A stretch of 60,658 nt of DNA, taken from positions 1 to 60,658 of the forward strand of contig CAZSAY010000004.1 of the NCBI GenBank assembly GCA_964605225.1, in the 5' to 3' direction. The DNA is from an uncultured Thermodesulfobacteriota bacterium (GTDB taxonomy: Bacteria; Desulfobacterota; GWC2-55-46; JADFVP01). The position numbers were made by a program, and so were the translations under genes. Position 1 is the first letter of the stretch, and every line of letters begins with the position of its first letter. The notes below the pieces were generated by a model, which saw only the letters and a program-made list of their open reading frames with translations, ran no database searches and had not been told where the DNA came from. Positions 1,137-60,658 of the stretch are shown piece after piece.

Positions 1137-1165
1137 TAATTCTCCTCTATTCCCCTCTCAAGGGT

Positions 1166-2080: not shown

Positions 2081-2100
2081 ATATATTTATTATACCTTAT

Positions 2101-5661: not shown

Positions 5662-5789
5662 AATGAGTTTATCTGAGAGTCTTCCGAATAGAGGGCAGGT
5701 TTTTTATAATAGCGCTTTATTTAAAGGTAGCATCTGCTTTCCCGGCTGTCAAGGAGGTACCCCTAAGGATAGAGAAGGCGGCGCTTTTT

Positions 5790-6836
5790 TTAAGGGTCAG
5801 GTGTTTTTTTATAAATGAGGGCAAGCATTACTCCCGTAAGTATCATGAGGAGCTCTCTACCCCTTCTTATAAGGCTCATGGCAAAGCCTGTCTCGGGGCC
5901 CATGCCCATGAGTACGGCGATGGCCGCTTTGCCTGTCTCCTGCGTACCCATGCCCGCAGGTACGGGAATTATGGCGGCTACGATGATGGTGGCGCACTCG
6001 AAGAGCCCGGCGCCGGTAATGCCGAGATCAACACCATTCGTGCCGATTACATGGGAGATGGCCATCCATTCAAGGGCCGCTGTAAACCACATGCCCATGT
6101 AGCAGGCATAGGCCGCCATGGCCCGTCCCGGGGCCCCTTTTATCTCCTTTGAGGCCGCGACATCAATATGGAGAAAACGGCGAAGCCCCCGTAGCCGTCT
6201 CGGCACGCGGAACCTTACGCGGTAATAGCCGCCAAGGAGCTGACGCCCCACCTGACTCCAGAGCACGATTAGCCATAGAAAGACGGTCATGGCCACCATG
6301 AGGCAGGCCATGGTGATAAAGGTCGCTCGCCATGAGGGGCCGCCTATGCCATGGAGGGCGGCGCTCAGGAAGACAAAGGCCCCAAAGGGTCCAACGGCGG
6401 CAACGTGCAGGAACTTTGCCGCCGCAAGGGCCATGAAGGCGGAGTTTTTGCCCTCTCCCCTGCCTAAGGCTATGAGTTTGTAAGGTTCTCCGCCTATGCC
6501 GCCCGTTGGCATGGCGTAGTTGAGTACCTCGCCTATGTAGCGCGTCCGTGTAAGGCTCAAGATGGTAGTGTTCTGCCAGCCCGCTGAGCCGCGTCTTGTG
6601 CCCAGGAGCCAGAGAGCGAAGGTGCCGAGGCACTGCTGAAGCGCATAGGCCCCCACTACGAAGATAAAGCCCGGCCACCAGCCGCCGGAGAGCTCCTTCC
6701 AGACCTCACCGGGCCCGAGATGCCAGACAAGGTAGATGGCGAGAAGCAGTCCTCCTGCTATGAGAAGGGGCTTTAGAGCGCGGCTTTTTTCCCTGCCCTT
6801 ATCCTTAAGAGTATTACGAGAATCGAGTATATCCAT
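5790..6836 (-). CDS. Lysylphosphatidylglycerol-synthase TM / flippase-like membrane protein (HpnL-like)
   Basis: Multiple hydrophobic segments, GEVLNYAMPTGGIGGEPYK and PVPAGMGTQE...RRGREL motifs of the UPF0104/LPG-synthase TM family; start position uncertain (64-nt overlap with upstream gene). Confidence 0.75.
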   Translation of the reverse strand: MDILDSRNTLKDKGREKSRALKPLLIAGGLLLAIYLVWHLGPGEVWKELSGGWWPGFIFVVGAYALQQCLGTFALWLLGTRRGSAGWQNTTILSLTRTRYIGEVLNYAMPTGGIGGEPYKLIALGRGEGKNSAFMALAAAKFLHVAAVGPFGAFVFLSAALHGIGGPSWRATFITMACLMVAMTVFLWLIVLWSQVGRQLLGGYYRVRFRVPRRLRGLRRFLHIDVAASKEIKGAPGRAMAAYACYMGMWFTAALEWMAISHVIGTNGVDLGITGAGLFECATIIVAAIIPVPAGMGTQETGKAAIAVLMGMGPETGFAMSLIRRGRELLMILTGVMLALIYKKTPDP

Positions 6837-8161: not shown

Positions 8162-8434
8162 ATAAAAAGCCCGTTTATTGCAGAGATGGCTTGTATTTCA
8201 TGCCTTGCTGTAGCAATATGTCTTCCTGTAGTATCTCTCTATTAAGGCGATACTCGTTTACGGGTGTTGTTTATTAGAGGCGGTCTGTCTTTTATGTAAA
8301 TTAAGATAATAAGACCTCGGGGCGTTGCCGCGGAAAAGATATCATAGACACTTGTAAAAGACAACCTGAAGAGGCTTTACCATAGGGGGTCTTACTCTAA
8401 GGCCCACAATAACCGGGTAAATGGGAATATTATA

Positions 8435-12887: not shown

Positions 12888-13256
12888 CTTTGCTTTCTTT
12901 TTGACAAAATAAATGGGGAAAAGAAAAGCAACATGGGATTGGCCTGGTGCCTTTTAGCAAAGGGTGCGCCTGTCAAACCTTCTTAAAAAAACGGGACGAA
13001 GAAAAGCAACGGGTAAAAACCTCATCGCCCTTAGATATAGGCCTTGTTTTATATCCTTGATCTCCACCTCAGGGGAGGCCTCTATCCTTTCTTATAATTC
13101 TATACTTTGCCATAGCCCCGAATTTTAAGTATCAACCACGCCTTTTATCTTACCGGGGCCTCTTCTGCCTGGAGTTAGAGCTTTCCCCCCCTGTCCTCTT
13201 CTGGCCTCACCTTGTGGGGCAAATCCCCTTGAGTCTTTTTCCCCCGGCACAAAAGA

Positions 13257-13289
13257 ATACTTGACAAAAATAATAAGGTATATTAAATT
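13257..13289 (+). promoter_or_regulatory. Sigma70-like promoter overlapping an IscR/Rrf2-type operator
   Basis: TTGACA (13261) - 17 nt - TAAATT (13284); 25-bp ATACTTGACAAAAATAATAAGGTAT (13257-13281) has the ATAC...GTAT frame of IscR type-1 sites and lies upstream of the Rrf2 gene. Confidence 0.6.
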
Positions 13290-13334
13290 TAACCATATAT
13301 GGCGATAAAGTCCTGGGCTCCGGGGTAGAGGAGA

Positions 13335-13470
13335 GGGGGCTTTGATATACGGGGCATGATAACTCCGGAGCTTGAATATACGGGGGCATGATATTTTCGG
13401 GGGGCTTGATATAGGGGGCTTGATATTGCAGAGGGCCTCGTCTCCGGGGGCTAATGGGGGCCTCATGTAT
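13335..13470 (+). repeat. G-tract short tandem repeats, GGGGGC(T/A)TGATA, about five copies in the Rrf2 leader
   Basis: Copies at ~13335, 13351, 13382, 13399, 13414, plus further G5 runs to ~13470. Confidence 0.75.
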
Positions 13471-13511
13471 AGGTCGCCGTTTTTTAAGGGTTATAAGGGT
13501 TATGAGATAAT

Positions 13512-13946
13512 ATGAGATTATCCACAAAAGGGCAATACGCCGTAAGGGCAATGGTAAGCCTTGCGAGGCATGACGGCGACGGACCTGTAACGCTAAAGAA
13601 CATATCAGAGGGAGAGGGTATATCACTATCATACCTTGAACAGCTCTTTGTAAAGCTCCGCAGGGGCCAGATTGTTCGCAGTGTGCGCGGCCCGGGCGGC
13701 GGATACGTACTCGCGAAACCTTCTTCCGAGATAAGCGTAGGTGAGGTAATCTCCGTTGTGGAAGAGCCCCTGAACCCCGTGGCTTGTCTGGATAAGGATT
13801 CCAAGGGTTGCGCCAGAGCGGCAAACTGTTCCACGCAGGGGGTCTGGAAGGGGCTGGCCAATAAGATATCGGAGTTTTTGAACTCCATAAGCATAGAGGA
13901 CATTACGGCAGAAGTAAAGACCGGGGCCGGCAGAGGCCCTCTTTAA
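13512..13946 (+). CDS. Rrf2-family transcriptional regulator (IscR-like)
   Basis: MRLSTKGQYAVRAM, ISLSYLEQLFVKLRR, SVRGPGGGY; three Cys (C-x7-C-x5-C) for an Fe-S cluster. Confidence 0.92.
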   Translation: MRLSTKGQYAVRAMVSLARHDGDGPVTLKNISEGEGISLSYLEQLFVKLRRGQIVRSVRGPGGGYVLAKPSSEISVGEVISVVEEPLNPVACLDKDSKGCARAANCSTQGVWKGLANKISEFLNSISIEDITAEVKTGAGRGPL

Positions 13947-26500: not shown

Positions 26501-26521
26501 GGTGGGCAGTGCCCACCCTAC
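26501..26521 (-). repeat. GTAG-type REP element
   Basis: Minus strand GTAG-GGTGGGCA-C-TGCCCACC: GTAG tetranucleotide followed by a perfect palindrome. Confidence 0.7.
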
Positions 26522-26540: not shown

Positions 26541-26655
26541 TGTCCCCCACTATCCCCCGTCTTTAATACGCCCCCGTACTCCCCATACGCCCCCGTACTC
26601 CGTCTTCCCAAACACTTCGCCCCTCATACGCCCCGTCTCTAATACGCCCCGTCCT
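26541..26655 (-). repeat. G-tract short repeats (ACGGGG(G)CGTAT x4) between atpD and atpC
   Basis: Plus-strand ATACGCCCC(C)GT at 26566, 26585, 26626, 26642. Confidence 0.85.
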
Positions 26656-30642: not shown

Positions 30643-30880
30643 AACCTTTCTTACTTTCTTTTGGAAAAAAGTAAAGTAAGACAAAGAAAACCAATAGGGA
30701 ATTAACACTGTTGCTATAAAACCTGCTTCCAACGCCCCGCTAAGCCTAAAGTTCGGAAAAAAGAAAGCAAGGCAAAGAAAACCAATAGGGAATTACCCGT
30801 ACTGCTATTGAATTTACTTCCTGCGCCCCTCCAAACTAAGTACAAAAAAAGAAAGCAAGATAAAAAAACAATATTACCCT
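30643..30880 (-). repeat. Three degenerate tandem copies of the dispersed repeat in the atpH-atpA spacer
   Basis: CAAAGAAAACCAATAGGGAATTA at 30682 and 30773, weaker copy at ~30861; hairpin variant CTTACTTTCTTTT-GGAA-AAAAG(T)AAAGTAAG at 30650-30680. Confidence 0.8.
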
Positions 30881-31488: not shown

Positions 31489-31586
31489 GTTTTTAAGGAG
31501 GTTAGACCTCTTTTATCCCCAAAATGCCTGATTTAATTGTTGCTATAAAAGCGTGTTCCTAGCCCAATTTTCCGCCTGCATCTATT

Positions 31587-31649
31587 CCCCATTGGCCGCC
31601 CCCTACCCCCGACTGCCCCCATTGGCCACCCAGTACCCCCTACTGCCCC
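31587..31649 (-). repeat. Two 30-bp G-rich tandem units in the atpF-atpH spacer
   Basis: Plus-strand CCCCATTGGCC at 31587 and 31617; the mRNA strand has seven runs of 3-5 G. Confidence 0.8.
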
Positions 31650-31686
31650 TTTTTTTGCAAATATCCCTTCTTACGCCCACTGCTTT

Positions 31687-32658: not shown

Positions 32659-32797
32659 TACCCTTTTCTCCCGATAGCAAAGGGGAGTGCATACCTCCCC
32701 CGCATTGACAAAATAAATGATAAAATATACTGGTTAATCACGGTATTGCTAACACATGCGCCAAGGAATTGTCAAGATAATAATAGGGTCAAAATCC

Positions 32798-32945
32798 CTT
32801 ACTTTCTTTTGGAAAAAAGAAACCAAGGGAATGTGAACCAACAGGGGACAATCGTCCCGCCCCTGAACCGGCCCCTTTTGCCCCGCGAAACCACCTTAAA
32901 AAAAAGAAAGTAAGACAAAAAAATCCAAGAGGGGGACAATCTTAC
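32798..32945 (-). repeat. Degenerate copies of the dispersed repeat upstream of atpF
   Basis: CTTACTTTCTTTTGGAAAAAAGAAACCAAG at 32798 and AAAAAAAGAAAGTAAGACAAAAAAATCCAAG at ~32899, each followed by GGGGACAAT. Confidence 0.6.
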
Positions 32946-32974
32946 CCCCTTTCAAGAAACATCGCGGCCTTGCT

Positions 32975-34680: not shown

Positions 34681-35544
34681 ATGAGAGTTTTTTTTGTCGC
34701 CCTTTTTGCATTGACACTTGTCATTATCCCTGAAGGCATTGTTTTCAGCGGGGCCTATGAGGGTGACTATAGTGTTGGTTCAGCGGCAAATGGCATAGGG
34801 TTCTCAAGGCATAATCTCGGCAAATACGGCGGCCGGACGCGCAAAGAGAAGAACTTCGAGATGTGCGTTTTTTGCCACACTCCCCATAGTCCCGCCGATA
34901 CGCCCGGCCCTCTCTGGGGCGGCCAGGACCCTGCCGTAACGAGCTTTACGGCCTACGGTACGGGTTTGAAGGGCGTGAAATCCATTAATACGGGGTTGGG
35001 CTCGCCGTCACTTGCCTGCCTCAGTTGTCATGACGGCTCAACGGCCTTTGACAACCTTGCAAACTCACCGGGAAAAAAGAAAAAAGCTCGAATGTCGACA
35101 CCGGCTAAGTGGGGTTTCAACTTTACCGAAAGTTCGATGAACCCCGCTCTTGTAAGCACCCGGCTTTTGCTCGGCCCGGTCCTTACCAACGACCATCCCG
35201 TCAATGTCCTTTTCAGGGGCGGTCAATATGCCTCACTGAGGCAAAAAAATACCATAATCAGCCAGATAAACCTGAGCGCGGGCCTTTATGATACCATGTA
35301 TGGCCGCATAATCCCCAACCTCTGGTCCATTAAGGGTTTTATCTCGGACACGGCTACCATAGGCGACCTTCTGAGAGACGGGAGGATAGAGTGTTCGAGT
35401 TGCCACGACCCCCATTTTAATAACAAGAGCTGGTCAGAGACGGCCAGCAGGTTCATAAACTGGAATGATATGGACGGGCTTTTTCTGAGGCGTATCGGCG
35501 GAAATTTCGCATCGGGAGTATGCCGGACCTGTCACGGAAAATAG
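34681..35544 (+). CDS. OmcE-like tetraheme c-type cytochrome (paralog 1)
   Basis: Signal peptide; four CxxCH (CVFCH, CLSCH, CSSCH, CRTCH) plus conserved His in RHNL, HTPH, NDHP, HDPH. Confidence 0.85.
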   Translation: MRVFFVALFALTLVIIPEGIVFSGAYEGDYSVGSAANGIGFSRHNLGKYGGRTRKEKNFEMCVFCHTPHSPADTPGPLWGGQDPAVTSFTAYGTGLKGVKSINTGLGSPSLACLSCHDGSTAFDNLANSPGKKKKARMSTPAKWGFNFTESSMNPALVSTRLLLGPVLTNDHPVNVLFRGGQYASLRQKNTIISQINLSAGLYDTMYGRIIPNLWSIKGFISDTATIGDLLRDGRIECSSCHDPHFNNKSWSETASRFINWNDMDGLFLRRIGGNFASGVCRTCHGK

Positions 35545-38679: not shown

Positions 38680-39687
38680 ATGAAAAGATTTTTAGCCATC
38701 GCCATAGCGGCAACCATGGGCCTCTTTTACGTAGGCCACGCCAACGCCGCCTCTACCTTCCAGGCCGGCGCCACAGGCACCAGCGGAAAATCAGTTGGTG
38801 GACCTCTTGACACCTACACGGCAGGTATGGCCGCCAACGGCGTCGTGCAGTCCAGGCATAACCTTGGCGCCTTCAGTCATCACCTTGGCACCAGGAATGA
38901 CAACACAGCCGGCACCGTAACAGGCACGACGCAGATATGTGTGTTCTGTCATACGCCTCACCATTCCAACACCGAGACCATGCCTCTGTGGAACAGGAAT
39001 ATGCCGAACTCCTCAAGCTATATCGGTTACGGCACGACCAAGGCCGGCACCGCTATAAGCCAGCCGCAGCAGGGTTCCGTATCACTTGCCTGTCTCTCCT
39101 GTCATGATGGTGTAACCACCTTTGACAACCTTGTCAACGCGCCAGGTAAGGGCCTTGCCATGGTAGGCGTCGGTGGCGGCGCCCCCGACCAGTTCTCAAG
39201 CTGGACCTTCTATGATGACGGTACCGCTCTTATCGCCAACAAGACCCTGAGCTTTTCCGCGAGGGTAAATCTCGGCACAGACCTCACCAATGACCATCCG
39301 GTGAACGTGGATTACAGTGGCGGCAAAAAGGCCTCCCTGAGGCCGAGGGGCACAGACATCGCCACCATCAACCTCTCTGCCGGTCTTAACCAGACCACGT
39401 CATACTTTGACTATATGAAGTCCAACCTCTGGGCTGTATCCGGTTTCATCAGCAGTACCGCTACAATCGGAGACCTCCTCAGGGCTGACAGCACAACAGC
39501 TGGAGCAAAGAACAAGGTTGAGTGCGCCAGTTGCCATGACCCACACTTCAGCAACGGTAGCTATCCTGAGTACACCAGGGATTCGAACAACAAATTCACC
39601 GGCCTTAACGCAGGTGATGGCGTATTCCTGAGAAGAGTGGGCGGTAACATGGGTTCCGGCGTTTGCAGAACCTGCCACAACAAGTAA
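38680..39687 (+). CDS. omcE: OmcE-like tetraheme c-type cytochrome (paralog 2, probable major subunit)
   Basis: AAGGAG RBS, signal peptide; SRHNL, TQICVFCHTPH, PLWNR, SLACLSCHDG, NLGTDLTNDHPVN, VECASCHDPH, FLRR, CRTCHNK follow the motif order I recall for Geobacter OmcE; orthology not verified. Confidence 0.85.
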   Translation: MKRFLAIAIAATMGLFYVGHANAASTFQAGATGTSGKSVGGPLDTYTAGMAANGVVQSRHNLGAFSHHLGTRNDNTAGTVTGTTQICVFCHTPHHSNTETMPLWNRNMPNSSSYIGYGTTKAGTAISQPQQGSVSLACLSCHDGVTTFDNLVNAPGKGLAMVGVGGGAPDQFSSWTFYDDGTALIANKTLSFSARVNLGTDLTNDHPVNVDYSGGKKASLRPRGTDIATINLSAGLNQTTSYFDYMKSNLWAVSGFISSTATIGDLLRADSTTAGAKNKVECASCHDPHFSNGSYPEYTRDSNNKFTGLNAGDGVFLRRVGGNMGSGVCRTCHNK

Positions 39688-41025: not shown

Positions 41026-41568
41026 GTGGTCATGAGATGTGATTTAAAGGATAGATCATGGTCTGTGCGTACCATTAAGGGCCAGGGGGTTGTACTGAGC
41101 CTGGGTATGCTTTTGTCTTTAGGGCTTTTTTCCCCACCCCATTTCGTGTTTGGCGCGGGGCAGGCCGTTACAGAGGCGAAGGACGCGCTTACGGGCAGGC
41201 GCGGCGACCCCGTGGCCGGTAAGCTAATCTACGAAAGATACTGTCATTACTGCCATGGCAGACAGGGTTACGGAGACGGCCCCGTAGGCACGGCCATTAC
41301 GCCTCATCCCGCGGATTTTGTTCATGATAGCAAGCGTATGAGAAAGTCCGATGAGAAACTCTTCAAATCCATAAGCGAGGGCGTTCAGAGGAAGATAGGC
41401 GGTGAGGCCATGGCCATGCCGCGGTGGGCGAATATCCTTGGCGAAAGAGAAAGGTGGGATGTCCTGGCGTATATCAGGGAGCTTGAGAGAAAGGGCCGCG
41501 CTCGTGAGGGGCTTGGTCCCATTGGAGACAAAGGGGCCTCTGGTCCTGCAAAGAGTACAAAGAGGTGA
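41026..41568 (+). CDS. Monoheme class I c-type cytochrome
   Basis: GKLIYERYCHYCHG..GYGDGP, HPADF, MAMPRWANIL...WDVLAYIR. Confidence 0.88.
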   Translation: MVMRCDLKDRSWSVRTIKGQGVVLSLGMLLSLGLFSPPHFVFGAGQAVTEAKDALTGRRGDPVAGKLIYERYCHYCHGRQGYGDGPVGTAITPHPADFVHDSKRMRKSDEKLFKSISEGVQRKIGGEAMAMPRWANILGERERWDVLAYIRELERKGRAREGLGPIGDKGASGPAKSTKR

Positions 41569-42611
41569 AGTTGCTTAATAGATACCATTTTTTTTTGAGC
41601 GCCCAGATCGTGGCCCTTGGGTTATTGACCGTGACAACTGCCATGGCGCTTCCTCCCGCACCCGATGATTATGACCCCGGCACAGGTGAGCCGCGTTGCA
41701 TAAAATGTCATAACAACGATAAAAAATATTCAATAGATTACTCAAGAGAGCCCTCATGCTTTTCGTGCCACGGCCCCGGTCTCAGTGAGCGGTACATCGC
41801 GGTAAACAAGAAGTATCGCCATAAAGAAGGAGATGAAGACCTTACCGTAGCGGCGGCAGAGGCGCCCCGCAAACCGGGCCTTAAGAAGGCGGCCCTGAAA
41901 AAAACCGTTAGTCCCACGGTTGCAGGAAAAAAGAATATGGTTTTTGTGCCGGCCGGGGCCTTTACCATGGGTTCCAATGACTGGTGGCCCAAGACTCAGC
42001 CCGAGCATAAAAGGTTTGTAAAGGGTTTTTATATCGATAAGTATGAGGTTACTCTCGAACGCTATGCCGCCTTCATCAAGGCTACGGGGCATAGCGCTCC
42101 CCCGAACTGGATCGAAGGCAAAATCCCTCCTGAAAAAGCCGGCCATCCAGTAACGTATGTTAGCTGGTTTGACGCCGATGCCTTTTGCAGATGGGAGGGT
42201 AAGCATCTGCCCTCTGAAGAGCAGTGGGAGAAGGCCGCCAGGGGCACCGACAAGCGTGCCTTTCCATGGGGAGAGAGGTTTTCTCGAAAAAAGGCCAATA
42301 CGCCGCAGTTCGGCTACGGCAATACCATGAAAGTAGGCAGTTTTTCCGAGGGTGTCAGCCCCTATGGCGCCTACGATATGGCGGGGAATGCCTGGGAATG
42401 GGTGGATAACTGGTTTAAGCCATATCCCGGCAACAGGCACCCCGATGAGAACTACGGGGAGAGGTTCAAGGTCCTGCGGGGAGGGTCGTGGTACGACTGC
42501 ACATACTACAAGTGCGGGATAAGCGCCCCGAGTTATAACAGGATATTTTTTAACCCTGAGACAAAAAATAACAACTTCGGGTTCAGATGCGCTACCGAAG
42601 GACAGGGGTAA
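41565..42611 (+). CDS. Diheme cytochrome c fused to an FGE-sulfatase (SUMF1/EgtB/PvdO) domain
   Basis: Signal peptide; CIKCH and CFSCH; then FTMGS, FYIDKYEVT, HPVTYVSW, LPSEEQWEKAARG, YDMAGNAWEW, RGGSWYDCTYYKC, FGFRC. Confidence 0.88.
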   Translation: MKLLNRYHFFLSAQIVALGLLTVTTAMALPPAPDDYDPGTGEPRCIKCHNNDKKYSIDYSREPSCFSCHGPGLSERYIAVNKKYRHKEGDEDLTVAAAEAPRKPGLKKAALKKTVSPTVAGKKNMVFVPAGAFTMGSNDWWPKTQPEHKRFVKGFYIDKYEVTLERYAAFIKATGHSAPPNWIEGKIPPEKAGHPVTYVSWFDADAFCRWEGKHLPSEEQWEKAARGTDKRAFPWGERFSRKKANTPQFGYGNTMKVGSFSEGVSPYGAYDMAGNAWEWVDNWFKPYPGNRHPDENYGERFKVLRGGSWYDCTYYKCGISAPSYNRIFFNPETKNNNFGFRCATEGQG

Positions 42612-42693
42612 GGTCGAATGCCATATAAAGGCGCGGGGCTATGCGCCTTTTGGGCTTCAGGATCTTCAGGCAGATGTTTTTTTAATGTAAGCA

Positions 42694-43527
42694 ATGGAGG
42701 TGGCAGTGTTTAAGGCAGGTTGGGGGGGTGCGATAAAGTATTTTGTCATGGCCCTCTTTCTAATTACGCCCGTGGCGCTTTCCGGGTGCGCGGAAAAAAA
42801 GAAAGACCTCCATGAGAATATGGTCCTTGTGCCGGGGGGCGAATTTATAATGGGTAGCAACAGGGTGGACACCGATGCCAAGGCCATGCAGTATGGATCG
42901 AGAAAACCATGGTTCGCCAATGAGTCGCCGGAGAGAAAGCTCTCTCTTAAGGCCTTTTATATTGATAAGACCGAGGTATCCATGGATGCCTACGGCAAGT
43001 TTGTCTCCGCCACAAACAGAAAACCCCCCGCAAACTGGACCGGCGGGGCGGTACCCGGGGGAAAGGGCAAGTACCCTGTGACCAATGTGAGCTGGTTTGA
43101 CGCCACGGCGTATTGCAAGTGGAAGGGAGGCAGGTTGCCGGGTGAACGGGAGTGGGAAAAGGCCGCCAGGGGCACGGATGGACGCGTCTTTCCCTGGGAA
43201 GGGGATTTTGATATTAAGAAGTTAAACACCCTTGGCGAATATGGAGGGACGACAACGGTGGGCAGGTTTCCCGAAGGTGCAAGCCCTTACGGCGTCCTTG
43301 ATATGGCGGGAAACGTACAGGAGTGGACGGCAGACTGGTATGGCCGGTATCCCGGCAATACCTATGATGACAAGGATTACGGCGAGAGGTTCAAGGTGGT
43401 AAGAGGTGGCGGCTGGGGCGGTATGGGACATTATACCATGCAGGTCTATGTTAGCGCCCCTTTCAGGAGCATAGCCCCGCCAAAGGGCGCTTATAATGAC
43501 GTTGGCTTTAGATGTATCCGAGAATAG
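42694..43527 (+). CDS. FGE-sulfatase-domain lipoprotein lacking the Cys pair
   Basis: Lipobox LSGC; FIMGS, YPVTNVSW, LPGEREWEKAARG, DMAGNVQEW, RGGGWGGMGH, VGFRC; start may be GTG 42706. Confidence 0.88.
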   Translation: MEVAVFKAGWGGAIKYFVMALFLITPVALSGCAEKKKDLHENMVLVPGGEFIMGSNRVDTDAKAMQYGSRKPWFANESPERKLSLKAFYIDKTEVSMDAYGKFVSATNRKPPANWTGGAVPGGKGKYPVTNVSWFDATAYCKWKGGRLPGEREWEKAARGTDGRVFPWEGDFDIKKLNTLGEYGGTTTVGRFPEGASPYGVLDMAGNVQEWTADWYGRYPGNTYDDKDYGERFKVVRGGGWGGMGHYTMQVYVSAPFRSIAPPKGAYNDVGFRCIRE

Positions 43528-49451: not shown

Positions 49452-49584
49452 TTAAACCTTCCCGCTTTCTTTTGGAAAAAAGAAAGCTTGGCAAAGAAAA
49501 CCAATAGGGGGTCGATAAGGGTTCTAACATCACCTGTGGCCGCCCTTGGATACTGCCGTTGCCCTGGCAAAGAAAACCAATAGG
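49452..49584 (-). repeat. Dispersed repeat copy E (core + unit + terminal hairpin)
   Basis: GGCAAAGAAAACCAATAGG twice (ending ~49508 and 49584); hairpin GCTTTCTTTT-GGAA-AAAAGAAAGC; ends just upstream of the TTG start at 49448. Confidence 0.9.
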
Positions 49585-49732
49585 CGTAAAGCCGCTTGTG
49601 ACGATAGTGGCTTTACTTAACTACATATTATAACTTATCATTATACTTAAATACAAGGATTGTCCGCATTTGTTTTTTAGGTTTTTTAGTATAAACTGTG
49701 CTGAGAGGGGGGGTAATGCCAGTGATTTTCCT

Positions 49733-52453
49733 ATGAGAGTGGAATACGCCAAAGAGCGGATAAAATTTTTTGATAATCTTCCCGGGAATATTGAGGCGAT
49801 ACATAGCGGTGCCCTCTGTTCCATATCCCCTGAGGGTTTAAGGTTTAAGCACGGCCATACCATCGCGGAGCTCAAGGTGCCTTATCATCTTGGTTCTGAC
49901 GATGAGGCTGTGTGCAAGGATGGCGTACTGGGGCTTGCGGCCCTTATCAGAAGCCGCTACGAATCTTTGAAACAAGCGCTTAAGGAAGCGGACTCACCCA
50001 GGGAGGGAGGTATTTATGTTAAGATACCGCAGCTACGAGAAAAAACCTTACGACTTGATATATTCGCCGCTCAATCCTTTGAGAGAGCCCTCGCGGCCAG
50101 AATACTTGAGAATACACCCTATGTTGACAGCGCCGTTCTTTACGCATGGCTCAGTCCCGGCGAGAGCGGCCATGAGTTTGTAAAGTGGCTTAGGGCCATC
50201 TTGAAAAAGGCCCGTAGCGACGAACTGCGCCACGGCCAATCTGAACATACCTCCTACCTGACGCTTCTCGCGCTTATTAAAACCATGCGTAAACATCAGA
50301 AAAACCTCAAGGATTTCCGCATACAAGGTCTTGCCTACGATAAGCTCGATCTCGCGGTAGGACTCACTTTTTTTCACCTCTTCTGCGCTATTATCGAGGA
50401 GCTTACAGGGGGATGGAGCGAGAACGATGGCCTCGGAGTTGTGCTGAGGTCGGCCCTTCTTCCAGAGCATTTTTTAAGCGTAAGATCCGGCATCCTCAAT
50501 ACCTCCCATAATCCCTACGGGCTCTCCATGGATACACTTGAGGCCCTGCGGCCGCTCATGGTTCCCCTTACGGACAATATTGAGTCCATGGGTCTTCTTG
50601 TTACAGAGGGGGTAAAGCGCGTAAGGAACGATAAGGCGGTTTTGAGGGCGGTCATAAGGCAGATAAAGTTAAGGCGCTTCAGGCAAAAGGCCCTTGAGTA
50701 TATGAAGTCATTCGATGTCCCCGATATAGATCTGCGCAAAGAGCTTTCCGAGCTCTATAACGAGGACCGGCTTATCTCCAACCTGATCAAGGATGGGAGA
50801 AAGGCCTCTACCCTTGCGGCCTCTCTTGAGGCGCAGCAAAAGGTAGTTGAAAAAGACCATGACCGCGCCGGCAAGCTCGGGGAAATTCGAGCTATTGTAC
50901 TTGAGCTGAGCAAAAAGAGGTCTCTATTTGGGGGGTTTGCAGGAGGCGGCAAGGAGGAGGAAAACGCCGAGATAGCCTCCGTCTTAGAAGGTTACTATGC
51001 CTTTGTACTTGACGAAATGGTTAAAGAGACCGTTGACCTTATGATGGACATACTTGTAGATAGGCGGCTGAAGCTCTCCAACAAGATGCTTCGTGATGAA
51101 TACCTGAAAGGTCAGATATACCGTTTTTCCACTGATAAGAGGGCCATGATAAAGACCCTTCATTCCAGGGAGGAGGGACAACTCTTTGTGGACATGAAGG
51201 ATTTCACCCGTAAGACGCATAATGTCAAAGAACTGGCCATGGCTGATTTCATGAAGGAATACTTCTTTAAGCCCATACTGGACGCCGCAGGGGGATATAC
51301 CGACGGGGAGGGGTTCAGCGAGGATGAGATGGGGATAAGGCTTACGAATATCCCCGGTGACGCCATTATCTTTTCAGGCGGCATGAGGCGCCTTGTGGCC
51401 CTTGCCCATGATATTCAGAGGATAATAAGCGAGTCGGGCAAGGCCCTGGAGAGAAGGCTACCGCCTGGAAGCGGCAGGGAAGCCCTTGAGGGGGTTCACC
51501 AGAGGTTCGAGGAGCGCAAAGCGGCAATCAGGAAGAAGAGGCTTGAGACGATAACCGGGATAGGGGACGGCAAGGAGGACTCGGCCGAGGCCATCTTGAG
51601 GATAGGCGAGGAAGAGAGCCGTCTTGAGAGAATATATAAAGACGAACTTGCGGCGGCCATCAAGCATGAGATGGAGGCGGGGCTCTTTATAACATATGGC
51701 GCCAGGGCCGAGGTAATAGATCTCGGATTTTCCAGGGGCTACAAGGGGCCTGTTAACGTCTCCATAGGAGAAAAGATAAACGAGGCCTCGCGCGGCACCT
51801 TCCGTCACCCCATGGTCAAGGCCTTTCTGGAGATACTTCTCTCAGGAGAGAGGGAGAGGCGGAGAAACAGGGAGCTCAAATACCCCTTTGATGTGTATAT
51901 CCATACGGCCTATACGCTGAGGATGCCTCCGGAGATCGAGCACGCATTTGAAAAACTCATCTCCGGGCAAAAGCTATCAAACGCCAGGGCCCTTACCAGG
52001 CTTATTACGGAGAACTATCTCAAGGACTTCGAGAAGATAATCGCCGGTGAGTCCTTCTCCGAGTTAAGGCTTATTACATCTATTACGGATATATACAACA
52101 AGGGGCAGGCCCTTAGCGATGAGGCCCTTGGCGCATACATAAAAGAGAGCAGGGGGGAGAAGTCTTTTTTAAGGAAGATAATCTGTAGAGATGATCTGCA
52201 TGAATCCATAAAAGGGGCCTTTTTTCTCCCACAGGAACGGATGGAGTTTATCTATAGCGCAAATCTTGATAAGGCCCCGGTGGAACTCTTTTACCGCGCC
52301 GGGGAGCTCATCTTCCGTGGTTTTGAGGCGGAGCCGCCAAGGGAGGTATACGAGATGCTGAACCCTGAAGGCGAGTTTTTCGCGGCTATCAAAGAGCATC
52401 ACCTCAAGGACTGGATTGAAGAGGCAAGGGAGGCAGGCGAAGAGCCCCTCTGA
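49733..52453 (+). CDS. Large cytoplasmic protein with a class III nucleotidyl-cyclase-like domain
   Basis: LFVDMKDFT, IPGDAII, EAGLFITYG, SIGEKINEASR match the order of class III cyclase motifs; start set at MRVEY. Confidence 0.65.
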   Translation: MRVEYAKERIKFFDNLPGNIEAIHSGALCSISPEGLRFKHGHTIAELKVPYHLGSDDEAVCKDGVLGLAALIRSRYESLKQALKEADSPREGGIYVKIPQLREKTLRLDIFAAQSFERALAARILENTPYVDSAVLYAWLSPGESGHEFVKWLRAILKKARSDELRHGQSEHTSYLTLLALIKTMRKHQKNLKDFRIQGLAYDKLDLAVGLTFFHLFCAIIEELTGGWSENDGLGVVLRSALLPEHFLSVRSGILNTSHNPYGLSMDTLEALRPLMVPLTDNIESMGLLVTEGVKRVRNDKAVLRAVIRQIKLRRFRQKALEYMKSFDVPDIDLRKELSELYNEDRLISNLIKDGRKASTLAASLEAQQKVVEKDHDRAGKLGEIRAIVLELSKKRSLFGGFAGGGKEEENAEIASVLEGYYAFVLDEMVKETVDLMMDILVDRRLKLSNKMLRDEYLKGQIYRFSTDKRAMIKTLHSREEGQLFVDMKDFTRKTHNVKELAMADFMKEYFFKPILDAAGGYTDGEGFSEDEMGIRLTNIPGDAIIFSGGMRRLVALAHDIQRIISESGKALERRLPPGSGREALEGVHQRFEERKAAIRKKRLETITGIGDGKEDSAEAILRIGEEESRLERIYKDELAAAIKHEMEAGLFITYGARAEVIDLGFSRGYKGPVNVSIGEKINEASRGTFRHPMVKAFLEILLSGERERRRNRELKYPFDVYIHTAYTLRMPPEIEHAFEKLISGQKLSNARALTRLITENYLKDFEKIIAGESFSELRLITSITDIYNKGQALSDEALGAYIKESRGEKSFLRKIICRDDLHESIKGAFFLPQERMEFIYSANLDKAPVELFYRAGELIFRGFEAEPPREVYEMLNPEGEFFAAIKEHHLKDWIEEAREAGEEPL

Positions 52454-52465
52454 AAAATATCCATA

Positions 52466-53338
52466 TCAGAGGACCTCGTTCATGCTCCCCGTTCTGTAAC
52501 CCTCAAGGTCCATTGTGACGTAAACAAAACCAAGTTCTTTCATGGCCCTTGTGATGGCCGTTCTTGAGTTTTCCTCAAGGAGGCGGCCCATCTCATCGGG
52601 GCTGGTCTCTATTCTCACCGTATTGCCGTGGTACCTTACCCTGAACTGGACAAACCCCAGCTCCCTCATGTATTGCTCCGCCCGGGCTACCTGCAAAAGC
52701 CTCTCTTCCGTAATATCCGTTCCATAGGGAAACCTTGATGATAGGCAGGCCATGGCGGGCTTGTCCCATGTGGATAGCCCTCTATCCCGGCTGATGGCCC
52801 GAATATTTTTTTTTGTGAGCCCGGCTTCACGTAGAGGGCTCCTTACGCCGAGTTCCCGCGCGGCCTCGCCGCCGGGCCTGTAGTCTTTTAGGTCGTCAAG
52901 ATTGGCCCCGTCGGCAAGGTGGGAGATACCAAGGGCGCGGGCCTCTTTCAAGGCGATTTTAAAGAGTTCATTTTTGCAGTGATAACATCTTTCCGGCGTA
53001 TTGGCGGAAAAACCCGGTATCTCCAGCTCATTTGATTGGGTGATAATATGATTTACGCCCATCTCTCTCGCAATCCTCACGGCCTCCTCGAACTCATGGG
53101 CCGGGTACGTGGGGGAGGTCGCCGTAATGGCTACGGCTTTGTCGCCGAGCACCTTTACCGCCGTCTGCAGGAGCAGTGTAGAGTCAACGCCTCCCGAGAA
53201 GGCCACCATAAGAGAACCCATATCCCTTATAATTGCCTCAAGTCTATGTAGTTTTGCAAGGGTCTCGTCGTCTAACCCTCTTATATCGGGGACTTTCGCC
53301 GGAGTCGACCTGGCAAGGTTTCCTTCTTTTATCCGCAT
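52466..53338 (-). CDS. larE: LarE-family ATP-dependent sulfur transferase
   Basis: AFSGGVDS PP-loop, RCYHCK, DGANLDD..DYRPG, PAMACLSSRFPYG, RVRYHG, GYRTGSMN. Confidence 0.9.
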   Translation of the reverse strand: MRIKEGNLARSTPAKVPDIRGLDDETLAKLHRLEAIIRDMGSLMVAFSGGVDSTLLLQTAVKVLGDKAVAITATSPTYPAHEFEEAVRIAREMGVNHIITQSNELEIPGFSANTPERCYHCKNELFKIALKEARALGISHLADGANLDDLKDYRPGGEAARELGVRSPLREAGLTKKNIRAISRDRGLSTWDKPAMACLSSRFPYGTDITEERLLQVARAEQYMRELGFVQFRVRYHGNTVRIETSPDEMGRLLEENSRTAITRAMKELGFVYVTMDLEGYRTGSMNEVL

Positions 53339-56858: not shown

Positions 56859-57632
56859 ATGAAACTCCTTATATTAGGTTGCGGCACATCTACGGGTGTG
56901 CCTGTAATAGGGTGTGCCTGCGAGGTATGCCTCTCAGCGGACCCACGAAACACACGCACACGGTCTTCCGTCCTTCTGAAGACCAAAACCCTTAATATCC
57001 TAATCGACACATCTACGGATCTACGCGCTCAGGCCCTCTCTTTTGGCATTAAAAGAGTAGACGCCGTCCTCTTCACCCATCCCCATGCCGACCATATACA
57101 CGGAATAGACGAGCTCCGCTCTTTTAATATGATTCAAGACGGCCCCATCCCGTGTTTTTCCAACAGCGAAACAGCGGAACGCATCAAGACAATCTTTAAT
57201 TATATATTCAACCCCGAGAGGGCCGACAGCATCACGCCACAGCTCTCGATAAACGTAGTGAACGGGCCTTTCAGCGTAGGTCCCGTGGAGGTCATCCCCA
57301 TAGAGGCAAGGCATGGCCGGGCCATGGTACTGGGGTTTCGCATCAAGGATTTTGCCTATATGACGGATTGTAGCCTGATACCCCCCGCCTCCATGAGCAA
57401 GCTTCGTGGCCTTGAACTTCTTGTCCTTGACGCGCTCAGATTCAGGTCCCATCCCACTCATATGAACATAGATGAGGCCATAGAGGTGGTGAGAAAACTC
57501 TCCCCCCGCAGGACAATCCTCACGCACCTCAGTCACGAGATAGATTACGAGCGGGATAACCCGAGGCTCCCCGGGGCCATGGAGTTTGCCTTTGATGGCA
57601 TGGTTGTAGAAGATATCGGGGGTAATGGGTGA
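56859..57632 (+). CDS. MBL-fold metallo-hydrolase (PhnP-like)
   Basis: LGCGTSTGVP.IGC.C.VC, THPHADHIHG, YMTD, THLSH. Confidence 0.9.
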   Translation: MKLLILGCGTSTGVPVIGCACEVCLSADPRNTRTRSSVLLKTKTLNILIDTSTDLRAQALSFGIKRVDAVLFTHPHADHIHGIDELRSFNMIQDGPIPCFSNSETAERIKTIFNYIFNPERADSITPQLSINVVNGPFSVGPVEVIPIEARHGRAMVLGFRIKDFAYMTDCSLIPPASMSKLRGLELLVLDALRFRSHPTHMNIDEAIEVVRKLSPRRTILTHLSHEIDYERDNPRLPGAMEFAFDGMVVEDIGGNG

Positions 57633-57672
57633 CGGCGGCGTGAGGAGTGAGTAGAATACCGGTTTGATGATT

Positions 57673-57910
57673 CCCCTATCTCTTTTCTTTGTCAGGCTTT
57701 TTGCCAGGACAAGGTTGTATCCAAGGGTGGCCGCAGGTGATGTTAGTGGCGAAGTTGCCCCCCTATTGGTTTTCTTTGCCAAGCTTTTTGTCAGGACAAC
57801 GATAGTATCCAAGGGTGGCCGCAGGGGATGTTAGTGGCGAAGTTGCTCCCCTATTGGTTTTCTTTGCCAAGCTTTCTTTTTTCCAAAAGAAAGCGGAAGG
57901 TTTTTTTAAA
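57673..57910 (+). repeat. Dispersed repeat copy F: two ~87-bp tandem units plus terminal hairpin
   Basis: Cores at 57675, 57762, 57850 (periods 87 and 88); GTATCCAAGGGTGGCCGCAGG.GATGTTAGTGGCGAAGTTGC twice. Confidence 0.92.
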
Positions 57911-58846
57911 GTGAAAAAAGCAATAATCTCCATCGGCGGTAACGCCTTAATAAAGCGCGGCGAGTCCGGGACCATTGAAGAGCAGTTTCATAATGCCGGG
58001 GCCGCCTGCACCCTTGCGTCAAAGTTACTGGCAGAGGGATGGGGGGTAATCATCACGCACGGCAACGGCCCTGTAGTGGGAAATATCGTCATCAGAAACG
58101 AGGCGGCAAAGGAGTTTATTCCGCCCATGCCCCTCTATATATCCGACGCCGACTCCGAGGGCGGGCTCGGATTCATGATTCAGCAGACCATATATAACGA
58201 GTTTATAAAGGCCGCTATTAAGACCGAGGTAGTCACCCTTATTACGCAGGTCGTTGTAAACCCCGAAGACCCTGCATTCATGGCTCCCACTAAACCCGTG
58301 GGACCATATTACACAAAAGACGAGGCCCAAAGACTTGGCCGGACAAAGGGCTGGACCATGCGGGAAGAAATCGGCCGCGGCATACGCCGCGTGGTCCCAT
58401 CGCCGAGGCCGCTTCGCATAATAGAGGCAGGTGTCATCAAGGCCCTCTCGGAGAGCGGCGTAGTGGTAATAGCGGCAGGCGGAGGCGGCGTCCCGGTTGT
58501 GGAGACAGATGAGGGGACCCTTAAGGGCGTAGACGCCGTAGTGGATAAAGACCTCTCAACGACTCTTCTCGCGAAAGAGACGGAGGCGAAGCGTATACTC
58601 AACCTTACAAGTATTGATGGCGTGTATCTTGATTTCGGTGGACCAGAGCAGAGGCCCCTTCGTGAGCTCAAGGTAAGAGACGCCAAAAAATATTTTGAGC
58701 AAGGTGAGTTCGCGTCGGGTAGTATGGGGCCGAAGATTGAGGCGGCCATAGAGTTTATCGAGTCAGGCGGCGAGGAGGTAATAATAACCACACCGGCCCT
58801 TATGAGCGAGGCCATGGAAGGCCGCGTTGGGACGAGGATCTTTTAA
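57911..58846 (+). CDS. arcC: Carbamate kinase
   Basis: SIGGNAL, THGNGP, TKPVGP, RRVVPSP.P, GGGGVPV, AVVDKD, GSMGPK; start set at GTG 57911. Confidence 0.92.
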   Translation: MKKAIISIGGNALIKRGESGTIEEQFHNAGAACTLASKLLAEGWGVIITHGNGPVVGNIVIRNEAAKEFIPPMPLYISDADSEGGLGFMIQQTIYNEFIKAAIKTEVVTLITQVVVNPEDPAFMAPTKPVGPYYTKDEAQRLGRTKGWTMREEIGRGIRRVVPSPRPLRIIEAGVIKALSESGVVVIAAGGGGVPVVETDEGTLKGVDAVVDKDLSTTLLAKETEAKRILNLTSIDGVYLDFGGPEQRPLRELKVRDAKKYFEQGEFASGSMGPKIEAAIEFIESGGEEVIITTPALMSEAMEGRVGTRIF

Positions 58847-58874
58847 TCCATAACCTTAAGAAGAGAGCGAAAAG

Positions 58875-60155
58875 ATGTCAAGTGATACGATAACGTGCCC
58901 AAACTGCGACGAGACCATACCCCTCACAGAGGCACTCTCACGGGAGATTAGTGAGGGTTTTAAAAAGGAATATGAGGCGCGCGAACGCGAAAGGGAAAAA
59001 GATATCAACAGGCGCGAGGAGGAATTAAGGAAGGAAAAGGCCGGTGTGGAGAGGCTCGTAACGGAAAAACTCTCGGCAGAGCGCGCCCGTCTTGAGCTTG
59101 AGGCACGAAAACGGGCCGAGCAGGCGGCGGCGGTAAAGATAACCGCCCTTGAGGAAGAAACCATTAAGAACAAAAAACTTCTTGCAGAGGCGAACCAGAA
59201 GGAGTTGGCCCACCTGAAAGAAAAGAGCGCCTTCGAAGATGAAAAAAGAGACTTCGAACTGAAAAAGGCCCGCGCCATGGAAGAAGAACGCACAGCCATA
59301 AGAGAAAAGGCTGAAAAGGTCTTTATCGAGGAACATCGCCTGAAAGATCTTGAAAAAGACAAAATGATTCAAGACATGAAAGGTATCATAACAGAGCTCA
59401 AGAGAAAATCCGAGCAGGGCTCAATGCAGACGCAGGGCGAGGTCATGGAGCTTGACCTTGAGGGCGCGCTGAAGGTCCGTTTCCCCTTTGACGAGATTGT
59501 GCCCGTGCCAAAAGGCATACGGGGAGCGGACATTATACAGAAGGTTCATACTAATACGGGACACTACTGCGGCACAATAATATGGGAACTGAAACGCACA
59601 AAGGCATGGAGCGGCGAGTGGCTTATAAAACTAAAAGATGATCAGCGCGAAGTAAAGGCCGATATCGCCGTTATCGCTACCGAGGCCATGCCTAAAGAGA
59701 CAAGTTCCTTTGATCTCATAGACGGCGTATGGGTGACGGAATACCATCTTGCCGGGAACCTTGCCTATGTCCTCAGAGAATCTCTTGTGAACGCGGCGCG
59801 TATCGTACAATCAGCCGTGGGCAAAGAGGAGAAGATGGAGGCCATATACAAGTATCTATCCGGTTCGGAGTTCACACAAAAAGTAAGGGCCGTACTTGAG
59901 ACTACCAATATCCTGAAGGCCGAGCTGAGCAAGGAAAAGGCCGCCATGAACAGGCTCTGGGGCAAACGCGATAAGCAGATAGATAAGATATTCATTACTA
60001 CGGCCGGGATGTACGGCGACCTTGAGGGCATTATAGGCGCGGCACTGCCCCCTATAAAGGCGCTTGAGCTTGAAGAGGGGAACAATGAGGTTGAAGAGGC
60101 CTCTCTACCTTCTCTCGAAGTGGGAAGAGACGAAAAAGAAGAAGAACTCTTTTAA
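58875..60155 (+). CDS. DUF2130-domain coiled-coil protein
   Basis: N-terminal CPNC, long coiled coil, SMQTQGEVME, GADIIQ, IIWELKRTKAW. Confidence 0.85.
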   Translation: MSSDTITCPNCDETIPLTEALSREISEGFKKEYEAREREREKDINRREEELRKEKAGVERLVTEKLSAERARLELEARKRAEQAAAVKITALEEETIKNKKLLAEANQKELAHLKEKSAFEDEKRDFELKKARAMEEERTAIREKAEKVFIEEHRLKDLEKDKMIQDMKGIITELKRKSEQGSMQTQGEVMELDLEGALKVRFPFDEIVPVPKGIRGADIIQKVHTNTGHYCGTIIWELKRTKAWSGEWLIKLKDDQREVKADIAVIATEAMPKETSSFDLIDGVWVTEYHLAGNLAYVLRESLVNAARIVQSAVGKEEKMEAIYKYLSGSEFTQKVRAVLETTNILKAELSKEKAAMNRLWGKRDKQIDKIFITTAGMYGDLEGIIGAALPPIKALELEEGNNEVEEASLPSLEVGRDEKEEELF

Positions 60156-60214
60156 GTCCTGCCATGGACTCAGCGTGAGACTTAAGATATATTATAGGCA
60201 TAGGGGGGTTTGAT

Positions 60215-60508
60215 GTGACAACTACATCTATCATCATAATAATATACATAGTGGCGGCCCTATGCGTGGGCGTTGCCTTGGGCTTTATGGCAAGTAAAGA
60301 CGGAGGCAGTTTCGTCAAATGGTTTTTGTACGGCGCGCTATTGCCTTTTATCGCCTTGCCAAAGGCCCTCTCTATAATTAAGGGTGTGGCCAGTACCGGC
60401 GGCGGAGGAGGCGGCGGCTACAAAAAATGTATGTACTGCCGTAAAAAAGTCAAATTCAGCGCCACGCACTGCCCCAAATGCGGCTACGAGTTTATAGACT
60501 GGCAATGA
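60215..60508 (+). CDS. Small membrane protein with C-terminal zinc ribbon
   Basis: Two hydrophobic helices, Gly linker, CMYC...CPKCG. Confidence 0.7.
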   Translation: MTTTSIIIIIYIVAALCVGVALGFMASKDGGSFVKWFLYGALLPFIALPKALSIIKGVASTGGGGGGGYKKCMYCRKKVKFSATHCPKCGYEFIDWQ

Positions 60509-60519
60509 GAAGGGCTTAA

Positions 60520-60658
60520 AAACCTTTCCGCTTTCTTTTGGAAAAAAGAAAGCTTGGCAAAGAAAACCAATAGGGGATCCACAGAGCCACTAACATTCCC
60601 CGTGGCCGCCCTTGGATTCAACCTTGCCCTGGCAAAAAGCTTGGCAAAGAAAACCAAT
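60520..60658 (-). repeat. Dispersed repeat copy G (hairpin + unit + core, cut by window end)
   Basis: Reverse complement of copy F; GGCAAAGAAAACCAAT ends at 60571 and 60658 (period 87). Confidence 0.92.

Follow-up and report, generated by a model that had tools for sequence, protein, structure and literature searches.

A dispersed box-hairpin repeat family, probably clade-restricted, in intergenic regions of uncultured Thermodesulfobacteriota

The 60,658-nt contig CAZSAY010000004.1 (assembly GCA_964605225.1) of an uncultured Thermodesulfobacteriota bacterium, analysed over its whole length and referred to here as the window, carries a tandem repeat array, designated array A, directly upstream of the carbamate kinase gene (arcC). 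Sequence comparisons suggest that array A is a member of a clade-restricted, non-coding and non-autonomous family of mosaic intergenic repeats, resembling bacterial interspersed mosaic elements (BIMEs) and BOX elements in architecture but probably not in sequence, with a proposed past spread and a proposed role at the RNA level. We assign this reading a probability of approximately 0.6. The involvement of the repeat arrays in one genome rearrangement is documented, and the most constant part of the family is a module consisting of an unpaired box followed by a hairpin.

Architecture of array A and of the repeat family

Array A (57633–57907, plus strand) consisted of approximately three head-to-tail units of ~88 bp each. 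Tandem Repeats Finder (TRF) reported 2.2 copies with a period of 88 and 92% matches at 57683–57875, and a degenerate first unit was added by a profile search with nhmmer. The leading module of this first unit started immediately 3′ of the stop codon of an MBL-fold gene (56859–57632). A full unit comprised four parts: a 28-nt box (CCCCTATTGGTTTTCTTTGCCAAGCTTT), a 12-nt mini-palindrome, a core (GTATCCAAGGGTGGCCGCAGG(T/G)GATGTTAG) and a more variable stretch of 12–13 nt. In unit 1, a degenerate box (57673–57700) was followed by the mini-palindrome TTGCCAGGACAA (57701–57712), by GTATCCAAGGGTGGCCGCAGGTGATGTTAG (57717–57746) and by the variable stretch TGGCGAAGTTGC (57747–57758). Unit 2 contained an exact 28-nt box (57760–57787), the mini-palindrome TTGTCAGGACAA (57788–57799), the conserved core (57805–57834) and a variable stretch (57835–57846) identical to that of unit 1. 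The terminal module was made up of a box (57848–57875), a perfect, A/T-rich hairpin of 10 bp (GCTTTCTTTT-TTCC-AAAAGAAAGC, 57871–57894), GGAAGG (57895–57900) and a run of seven T residues (57901–57907). The GTG start codon of carbamate kinase, the identity of which was confirmed for this open reading frame (ORF), followed directly at 57911.

The box CCCCTATTGGTTTTCTTTGCCAAGCTTT occurred five times in the window at three or fewer mismatches, compared with zero occurrences expected from shuffled sequences. An initial annotation of the window had described a modular, tandem-capable element of ~87 bp, which the TRF period and the box count confirmed as real. A discrete variable slot of 13 nt, also proposed there, did not hold up: both units of array A are identical at this position, and the whole interior of ~45 nt varies across the family. 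The reported co-variation of the inner palindrome was recovered, with TTGCC..GGCAA at 60625–60636 and 49561–49573, TTGTC..GACAA at 57788–57799, and a one-mismatch (C-A) intermediate, TTGCC..GACAA, at 57701–57712. The terminal hairpin was the sole inverted repeat within array A, and no terminal inverted repeats were found in the array besides it, in agreement with the earlier description.

Along the arrays, ORF finders and the JGI gene caller placed ORFs of 55–107 aa (57664–57834 in the window; 9757–9924 and 12644–12967 on L060, a longer contig of the same genome). None had family matches, and ORFs running along the repeat arrays are most likely artefacts of the repeats.

The constant part across copies of the family was a terminal module of ~55 nt. 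It contained, in order, a 20-nt invariant box (CCCCTATTGGTTTTCTTTGyC), an A/T-rich hairpin of 10–13 bp with TTCC or TTCT as the loop, approximately three purines that often resemble GGAGG, and a T-run. Among 43 aligned copies, GGTTTTCTTT was invariant, as was nearly all of the preceding CCCTATT; TTTG(Y)C preceded the stem and GGR followed it. Over 86 copies, nine upper stem pairs were nearly invariant and A/T-rich, and four basal pairs varied. The basal pairs swapped C-G for T-A or G-C for A-T in a compensatory manner (CTTA/TAAG, CCCG/CGGG, CCTA/TAGG, CCTGG/CCAGG); the lineage of the window carried the basal variant CAAG/CGGA, with a stem of 10 bp. Compensatory changes occupied 18 cells, compared with 7.6 expected. 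Judged from these alignments, the hairpin is under selection. The folding strand was also addressed through the asymmetry of G-T versus A-C, but the non-Watson–Crick pairs were too few to favour either strand.

The terminal module was preceded by 0 to 4 or more units of 83–110 bp, arranged head to tail as direct repeats with periods of the same range. Each unit began with a box, often degenerate, followed by a variable G+C-rich region (YGYGGGGCGC ... TTCAATG-like ... CCCC). Every array in the window ended in the terminal hairpin or in a decayed form of it, consistent with the initial annotation, and the hairpin was retained there by the last unit only. Unlike the window arrays, those of L016 and L065 had a hairpin in every unit.

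Distribution of the family

A genome-collection scan with one genome per species, using the 20-nt box as the pattern, returned 59 loci. Such an exact-match search skews the sample toward conserved copies. Real copies were present at 55 of the 59 loci, and the other four were chance matches without the hairpin. Fifty-four loci belonged to six Thermodesulfobacteriota/Deltaproteobacteria metagenome-assembled genomes (MAGs; CAYYJQ, CAZMKZ, CAYYUX, JAJRZX, CAYOVP and JBHHUP), and a seventh MAG, CAZEBZ, also contained the family. One locus was located on a 5.2-kb contig binned as Phycisphaeraceae (L032, CAZWWW010000257.1). This contig was 93% identical over 483 aligned nt to a CAYYUX contig, and by this similarity its assignment to the Phycisphaeraceae is probably a binning error. 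In two DNA metagenomes holding the window sequence, the summed contig depth of the terminal module was ~3,500x and ~10,000x flanking depth, with hundreds of different flanks.

Searches of catalogues and other collections were negative. Rfam gave no match over the whole window at gathering thresholds (best sub-threshold E-value 0.02, to an unrelated viral stem-loop) and nothing relevant at permissive E-values, in line with the earlier statement that the element could not be assigned to a named family. No match was found by blastn in phage and plasmid collections. A single match in viral contigs and all 13 matches in a metagenome collection of 241 million records were chance matches without the hairpin, and an earlier scan of metagenomes, using a pattern with an N-run, had no matches. 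With many copies in related MAGs and none in these catalogues and collections, the family is abundant but phylogenetically narrow. As far as these searches reach, it is previously uncatalogued and limited to a small clade of uncultured Thermodesulfobacteriota.

Inversion between arrays A and C

Array A faces a second array, array C, at the right end of the window (Table 1). Contig L060 (110,573 nt) reads through this end and shows that array C consists of four units extending up to the 3′ end of a Pyr_redox gene; its terminal module (60521–60580) abuts the stop codon of a 97-aa gene (orf97). In blastn comparisons with four relatives, the segment holding arcC, a DUF2130 gene and orf97 aligned on the plus strand and both of its flanks on the minus strand. 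The relatives (CAZMKZ, CAYYUX, CAZEBZ and CAYYJQ) had the uninverted order EF-G > orf331 > AP-endonuclease > Pyr_redox > (element, plus) arcC > DUF2130 > orf96, continued by (element, minus, in CAYYUX and CAYYJQ) < MBL < Cyt-b5 < M50 < AI-2E. The order in the window genome was MBL > (array A, plus) arcC > DUF2130 > orf97 > (array C, minus) < Pyr_redox. The difference is a 2.7-kb inversion of three genes with breakpoints within arrays A and C, two members of one subfamily in opposite orientations. It would be explained most simply by homologous recombination between two elements that already formed an inverted pair in the ancestor; such a pair is still seen in CAYYUX and CAYYJQ.

Turnover at orthologous sites

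Orthologous sites differed in the state of the repeat. One site was conserved in L017 and L020 and unrecognisable in L040, a copy intact in L026 had decayed to near-neutral similarity in L039, and another was present in L023 and absent from L058. The junction between the 96-aa gene and the MBL gene held an element in CAYYUX, CAYYJQ and the window genome and none in CAZMKZ and CAZEBZ. Upstream of arcC, the five genomes compared had between 1 and at least 5 units. The terminal module stood directly before arcC in all five, despite the change of upstream neighbour caused by the inversion, and compensatory changes at the hairpin base were also observed among these orthologous copies.

A 297-nt composite insertion in L026 corresponded to an empty TAATG gene overlap in L039, with a duplication of at most 1 nt. 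The initial annotation had considered a family related to miniature inverted-repeat transposable elements (MITEs); this option is not supported, as terminal inverted repeats were lacking and the one clean filled/empty pair, itself composite, gave no sign of a target duplication beyond this 1 nt. Interior subfamilies were common to unrelated loci and to different genomes, which implies copying between sites.

Placement relative to genes and RNA-level features

Copies of the family were strictly intergenic. The earlier observation of intergenic placement without a transposase held for all seven window loci and for the window genes, none of which encoded a transposase. Adjacent genes were ordinary housekeeping genes; in the window they encoded a radical-SAM/DUF3463 protein, MlaC, TldD, AtpF, AtpH, AtpA, a TPR protein, an MBL-fold hydrolase and carbamate kinase. 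Ten genes bracketed by elements were likewise all housekeeping genes, with no transposase among them. Orientation relative to flanking genes was nearly unbiased, with copies co-directional with both neighbours (21), antisense to both (11), convergent (7) or divergent (7).

In 24 of 78 modules, an ORF on the same strand (at least 100 codons, or at least 80 if cut by the end of the locus) started 2–30 nt after the stem, and in 21 of 78 the stop codon of a convergent gene was located within 45 nt. In L028 (10–132), a tRNA-Cys gene lay on the strand opposite to a terminal module, and its 3′ end shared a few bases with the 3′ arm of the hairpin. T was the most frequent base from position +4 to +11 past the stem, and a T-run of at least four was present in 47 of 84 copies. 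Approximately three purines stood between the 13-bp stem and the T-rich stretch. In the consensus, a predicted basal extension of the stem pairs these purines with UUUG(U/C)C before the stem, an extension that was not kept in all subfamilies. As modelled on the sense strand, the long A/U stem with its U-tract would resemble a terminator or a stabiliser, and the predicted extension would also occlude the Shine-Dalgarno sequence. Promoter-like signals were not consistent. On inspection, TGGTTTTCTTTGC did not qualify as a sigma-54 promoter, as its GG and GC are two bases too close together and GT replaces GC in many copies, and no consistent sigma-70 hexamers were found inside the element.

Search for a mobiliser and the co-resident GTAG-REP

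The initial annotation had proposed looking for a nuclease gene flanked by the element, such as a transposase associated with repetitive extragenic palindromes (REPs), known as RAYT. A motif search for RAYT in an initial set of loci found none. With E. coli RayT as the tblastn query against ~570 kb of element-bearing loci, one RAYT was found, in L049 (731–946). Over residues 1–70 it shared 49% identity with E. coli RayT, and it had the HUH motif PDHIH. This RAYT was flanked not by the box-hairpin element but by a canonical GTAG-tagged REP (GTAG-GGTGGGCTGTGCCCACC) on its 5′ side, ~25 nt upstream of the start, and the box-hairpin element was located directly beyond the REP. Decayed RAYT homologues on L070 and L071 had a GTAG-REP on both sides and no box-hairpin module. 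Given these flanks in L049, L070 and L071, the RAYT belongs to a second repeat family.

Twenty of the 31 REP-like sites in the fetched loci were within 150 nt of a terminal module, a proximity inflated by the choice of loci for carrying the box, and BIME-like mosaics were observed in CAYYJQ, CAYOVP and JBHHUP. The window itself had a single GTAG-REP (GGTGGGCAGTGCCCACC-CTAC, 26501–26521), between atpD and atpC. Just downstream of it in the same spacer (26566–26650), several copies of a motif of ~10 nt (ATACGCCCC / GTACTCC) were observed.

Proposed spread and alternative explanations

We propose that the family owes its past spread to a trans-acting enzyme that would have read the folded hairpin together with the adjacent single-stranded box, in the style of HUH enzymes. 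The absence of terminal inverted repeats, the lack of duplication in one clean case and the position of the hairpin beside a conserved single-stranded motif suggest such single-strand processing. Arrays would gain and lose units by slippage or unequal recombination involving the directly repeated boxes, which would explain why only the last unit of the window arrays has the hairpin. Inserted elements would be co-transcribed with the adjacent genes. A terminal module in the sense orientation would then form a hairpin followed by a U-tract and could act as a terminator, an attenuator or a stabiliser of the 3′ end, and approximately one module in four would supply the Shine-Dalgarno sequence (the GGAGG-like purines) of the next gene.

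Several observations weigh against a mobile repeat with an RNA-level role. No mobilising enzyme for the box-hairpin family was found in the ~570 kb of element-bearing loci, and no RAYT directly flanked by the module was found in these loci or on L070 and L071. Filled/empty pairs were few; L026/L039 was the cleanest but is composite, and the other pairs were too diverged to align. Some orthologous copies had a perfect consensus box and hairpin beside genes with 72–82% protein identity, which is more easily explained by host selection or gene conversion than by a purely selfish element. At the RNA level, a standard consensus terminator scan did not call the terminal hairpin, and efficient termination by the sense copies inside the atp operon would be harmful. 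The one metatranscriptome contig holding a copy, from tiny runs of the same study, was uninformative on the strand and on RNA ends. With the stem extension not universal, the terminator scan negative, and sense copies located in the atp operon and before arcC, any RNA effect would depend on context.

The most credible competing account, although still unlikely, is that the module is a cis-acting signal of the host and not mobile: either a binding site for a conserved, clade-specific protein that recognises DNA or RNA, or the terminator and ribosome-binding punctuation of the clade. The signal would be maintained at gene boundaries by purifying selection, with arrays arising by local duplication only. 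The invariance of the box and the upper stem across species with such diverged neighbouring genes would be expected of a host signal, and the compensatory changes at the hairpin base, seen even in orthologous copies upstream of arcC, point the same way. So do the purine-rich, then T-rich tail, the location of modules within a few nt of start or stop codons, and the persistence of the module before arcC in all five genomes, even after the inversion. However, the near-random orientation, with 11 copies antisense to both neighbours, speaks against a host signal. Orthologous copies were decayed or missing without visible replacement, the shared interior subfamilies imply copying, and part of the apparent conservation may reflect the exact-match search.

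A more far-reaching reading, which we consider rather improbable, is that the module is no passive REP-like relic but the recognition site of a clade-specific enzyme or binding protein, for example an HUH-type single-strand nuclease distinct from the resident RAYT or a global RNA-binding factor. The module would then be a mobile form of gene punctuation, bringing a hairpin/U-tract stop signal and a Shine-Dalgarno sequence to any gene boundary at which it inserts. If true, the invariance of the box across species would reflect the interaction with this enzyme or protein.

The box-hairpin module could also be an extra BIME motif of the REP/RAYT system of the clade, travelling with, or mobilised by, the RAYT of the GTAG-REP (GGTGGGC-NNN-GCCCACC). 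The arrangement on L049, the proximity of REP-like sites to terminal modules in BIME-like mosaics and the presence of one GTAG-REP in the window genome are consistent with it. The family resembles the BIME/REP elements of Enterobacteria and Pseudomonas in being high-copy and strictly intergenic, in combining a hairpin motif with accessory motifs in mosaic clusters of variable units, in occurring between and within operons, and in serving as a substrate for rearrangements. In this sense, the initial description of a BIME/REP-like dispersed family (high-copy, intergenic, modular and tandem-capable) stands. It fails in the strict sense of a RAYT-associated REP, since a separate GTAG-REP with its own RAYT coexists. 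REPs are imperfect, G+C-rich palindromes of 20–40 bp, whereas the hairpin here is A/T-rich, 10–13 bp long and has a perfect upper stem. In REPs, one end of the palindrome bears an unpaired tag, GTAG or CGTC (PMC3733652); the co-resident REP has such a tag and the box-hairpin module has neither. REPs alternate or invert (REPIN, BIME), whereas the units here are head to tail, and the most conserved part here is an unpaired box of 20 nt. The box-hairpin family is not in the REP/RAYT class by any defining feature. Furthermore, the RAYT homologues on two other contigs had a GTAG-REP on both sides and no module, the module is approximately seven times more common than the REP in the window genome, and proximity was inflated by selecting loci for the box. 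We see only a slim chance of this explanation.

Finally, it is very improbable that the copies are small RNA genes or riboswitch-like RNAs in which each unit has a conserved multi-helix fold. The initial annotation had included a repeated structured RNA among its options, and this applied to the terminal hairpin, which resembles the 3′ end of a small RNA, but not to the interior. Many interiors could fold as a hairpin closed by GGGG/CCCC, and the interior folded slightly better than dinucleotide shuffles (mean z-score −0.7, significantly below zero). However, this score is small and equal on both strands, the GGGG/CCCC pairing showed no compensatory change, and RNAalifold recovered the terminal hairpin only. 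A multi-helix RNA model of the interior thus found little support. The lack of an Rfam match or a consistent promoter, the random orientation and the unrelated gene contexts also argue against RNA genes.

Comparison with other dispersed repeats

BOX elements of Streptococcus pneumoniae are modular, intergenic and non-coding, are transcribed with their neighbours and underwent a past expansion followed by decay (PMC3184786). The box-hairpin family shares with the boxA-boxB(n)-boxC arrangement fixed ends and variable internal modules, here 0 to 4+ units before one terminal module. This likeness is architectural only; the host phylum is unrelated, the sequences are probably unrelated too, and Rfam gave no match. 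The left end here is just another copy of the box rather than a distinct A module, and mobilisation by an insertion sequence has been proposed for BOX, whereas none is known for the box-hairpin family. Pneumococcal SPRITE elements, which resemble Rho-independent terminators, likewise end in a stem-loop and a T-run, and many copies abut gene 3′ ends. In contrast, the copies described here have no orientation bias to gene 3′ ends and have a 3-nt purine spacer before the T-run, and sense copies occur inside operons and directly before start codons.

Mycobacterial MIRUs are also tandem intergenic units of 40–100 bp in operons, with copy numbers that vary between species (PMC3184786), but they are co-oriented with the operon and contain small ORFs overlapping the flanking genes, which was not seen here. 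Neisseria REP2 similarly lacks terminal inverted repeats and has a ribosome-binding site just before ORFs (PMC3184786); the promoter and start codon of REP2 were not seen here. Palindrome-associated elements derived from IS200/IS605, and HUH substrates in general, share a sub-terminal hairpin that adjoins a conserved single-stranded motif, and they likewise lack terminal inverted repeats; the single informative filled/empty pair here showed at most 1 nt of target duplication. They differ in that no TnpA, TnpB or other HUH gene carrying box-hairpin ends was found in the loci examined.

Other copies and features of the window

The family occupied seven intergenic loci in the 60.7 kb of the window, four intact and three divergent or decayed (Table 1), compared with four intact and two or three decayed loci in the initial annotation. 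The same seven loci were obtained with nhmmer and, with filters off, with a covariance model built on the terminal module.

Table 1. Repeat copies, parts of array A and the inverted segment in the window
Feature	Position	Strand	Evidence
Terminal module at contig start	1–70	+	Sequence; covariance model
Decayed copy, ~two units, downstream of MlaC-family gene	12888–13044	−	nhmmer; covariance model 24.6 bits, E=4e-4
Divergent subfamily, 2.4 units of 91 bp + terminal module	30644–30870	−	TRF; nhmmer; covariance model 74.3 bits
Divergent two-unit copy between tldD/pmbA and atpF	32791–32966	−	nhmmer; covariance model 55.3 bits
Array B, one unit + terminal module	49454–49592	−	nhmmer; covariance model 79.2 bits
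Array A, leading interior module, degenerate	57633–57672	+	nhmmer unit profile matches 57633–57700, E=7e-5
Array A, unit 1	57673–57759	+	Sequence; TRF period 88; repeat family D7
Array A, unit 2	57760–57847	+	Sequence; TRF; repeat family; box count
Array A, terminal module	57848–57907	+	Covariance model R1 77.1 bits, E=1.4e-16; inverted repeat I1
Inverted segment arcC-DUF2130-orf97	57840–60576	.	blastn of L060 vs L061, L064, L065, L067; gene orders
Array C, inverted vs array A	60519–60658	−	Sequence; longer contig L060; covariance model

The module at the contig start had its 3′ end towards the stop codon of the radical-SAM/DUF3463 gene (72–1136, minus strand), and an orthologue of this copy was present in CAYYUX (L027). 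The copy with 2.4 units was located between atpH and atpA, sense to the atp operon. Array B occupied a divergent intergenic region immediately upstream of the TTG start codon (49448) of a 620-aa TPR protein. The ORF divergent from array B (49670–52453, 927 aa) and a 290-aa ORF (52466–53338) had no Pfam match.

Both ends of the window (1–28 and 60636–60658) lay inside the box, which indicates that the assembler broke there. Many MAG contigs likewise started or ended in the box (L006, L012, L019, L028, L030, L047 and L054). The repeat family is a frequent assembly breakpoint in the clade.

In the atpF/atpH spacer (31520–31650), a 30-nt tandem repeat (CCCCATTGGCCACCCACTACCCCCGACTGC, 2.1 copies) was observed. 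A stretch of this spacer (CTTTTATAGCAACAATTAA, minus strand) resembled the interior of the atpH/atpA element and may be an eighth, strongly decayed copy, in which case the atp operon would have repeats in four spacers.

No tRNA or tmRNA genes were found in the window. An unrelated 32-nt tandem repeat (GGGGGCTTGATATAGGGGGCATGATATTCTC; 2.9 copies, 76% matches) at 13335–13427 was located inside a 205-aa ORF (13207–13824, minus strand) that had no Pfam match and may be spurious. Two adjacent FGE-sulfatase-domain paralogues (41565–43527) contained DNA stretches with 75–76% identity. A 68-nt stretch occurred twice with 76% identity (35008–35075 and 39082–39149), in ORFs (34681–35544 and 38680–39687) without Pfam matches at the thresholds used. 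The region with these paralogues and the 68-nt stretches also encoded cytochrome c7-like, cytochrome c, NHL-repeat and PPIase proteins. At the left end of the window, 72–11125 encoded the radical-SAM/DUF3463 protein, IspH/LytB, an epimerase, two more radical-SAM proteins, a nucleotidyl/CDP-alcohol transferase fusion and an MMPL transporter, followed by MlaC genes; this region may be a hopanoid-type lipid cluster. Its first ~7.9 kb was collinear with the CAYYUX contig L027 (83% identity).

Significance

In practical terms, the family fragments assemblies and causes gene callers to emit spurious ORFs across arrays, and the variation in unit number could act as a strain marker. The family adds a distinct architecture of dispersed repeats, which combines an invariant unpaired box with an A/T-rich hairpin and units arranged head to tail, in a poorly studied uncultured lineage. 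The inversion of three genes, with its breakpoints in two inverted arrays, is a concrete case of repeats reshaping a genome. With the GTAG-REP/RAYT and box-hairpin families side by side, the clade is suited to asking whether one enzyme serves both.

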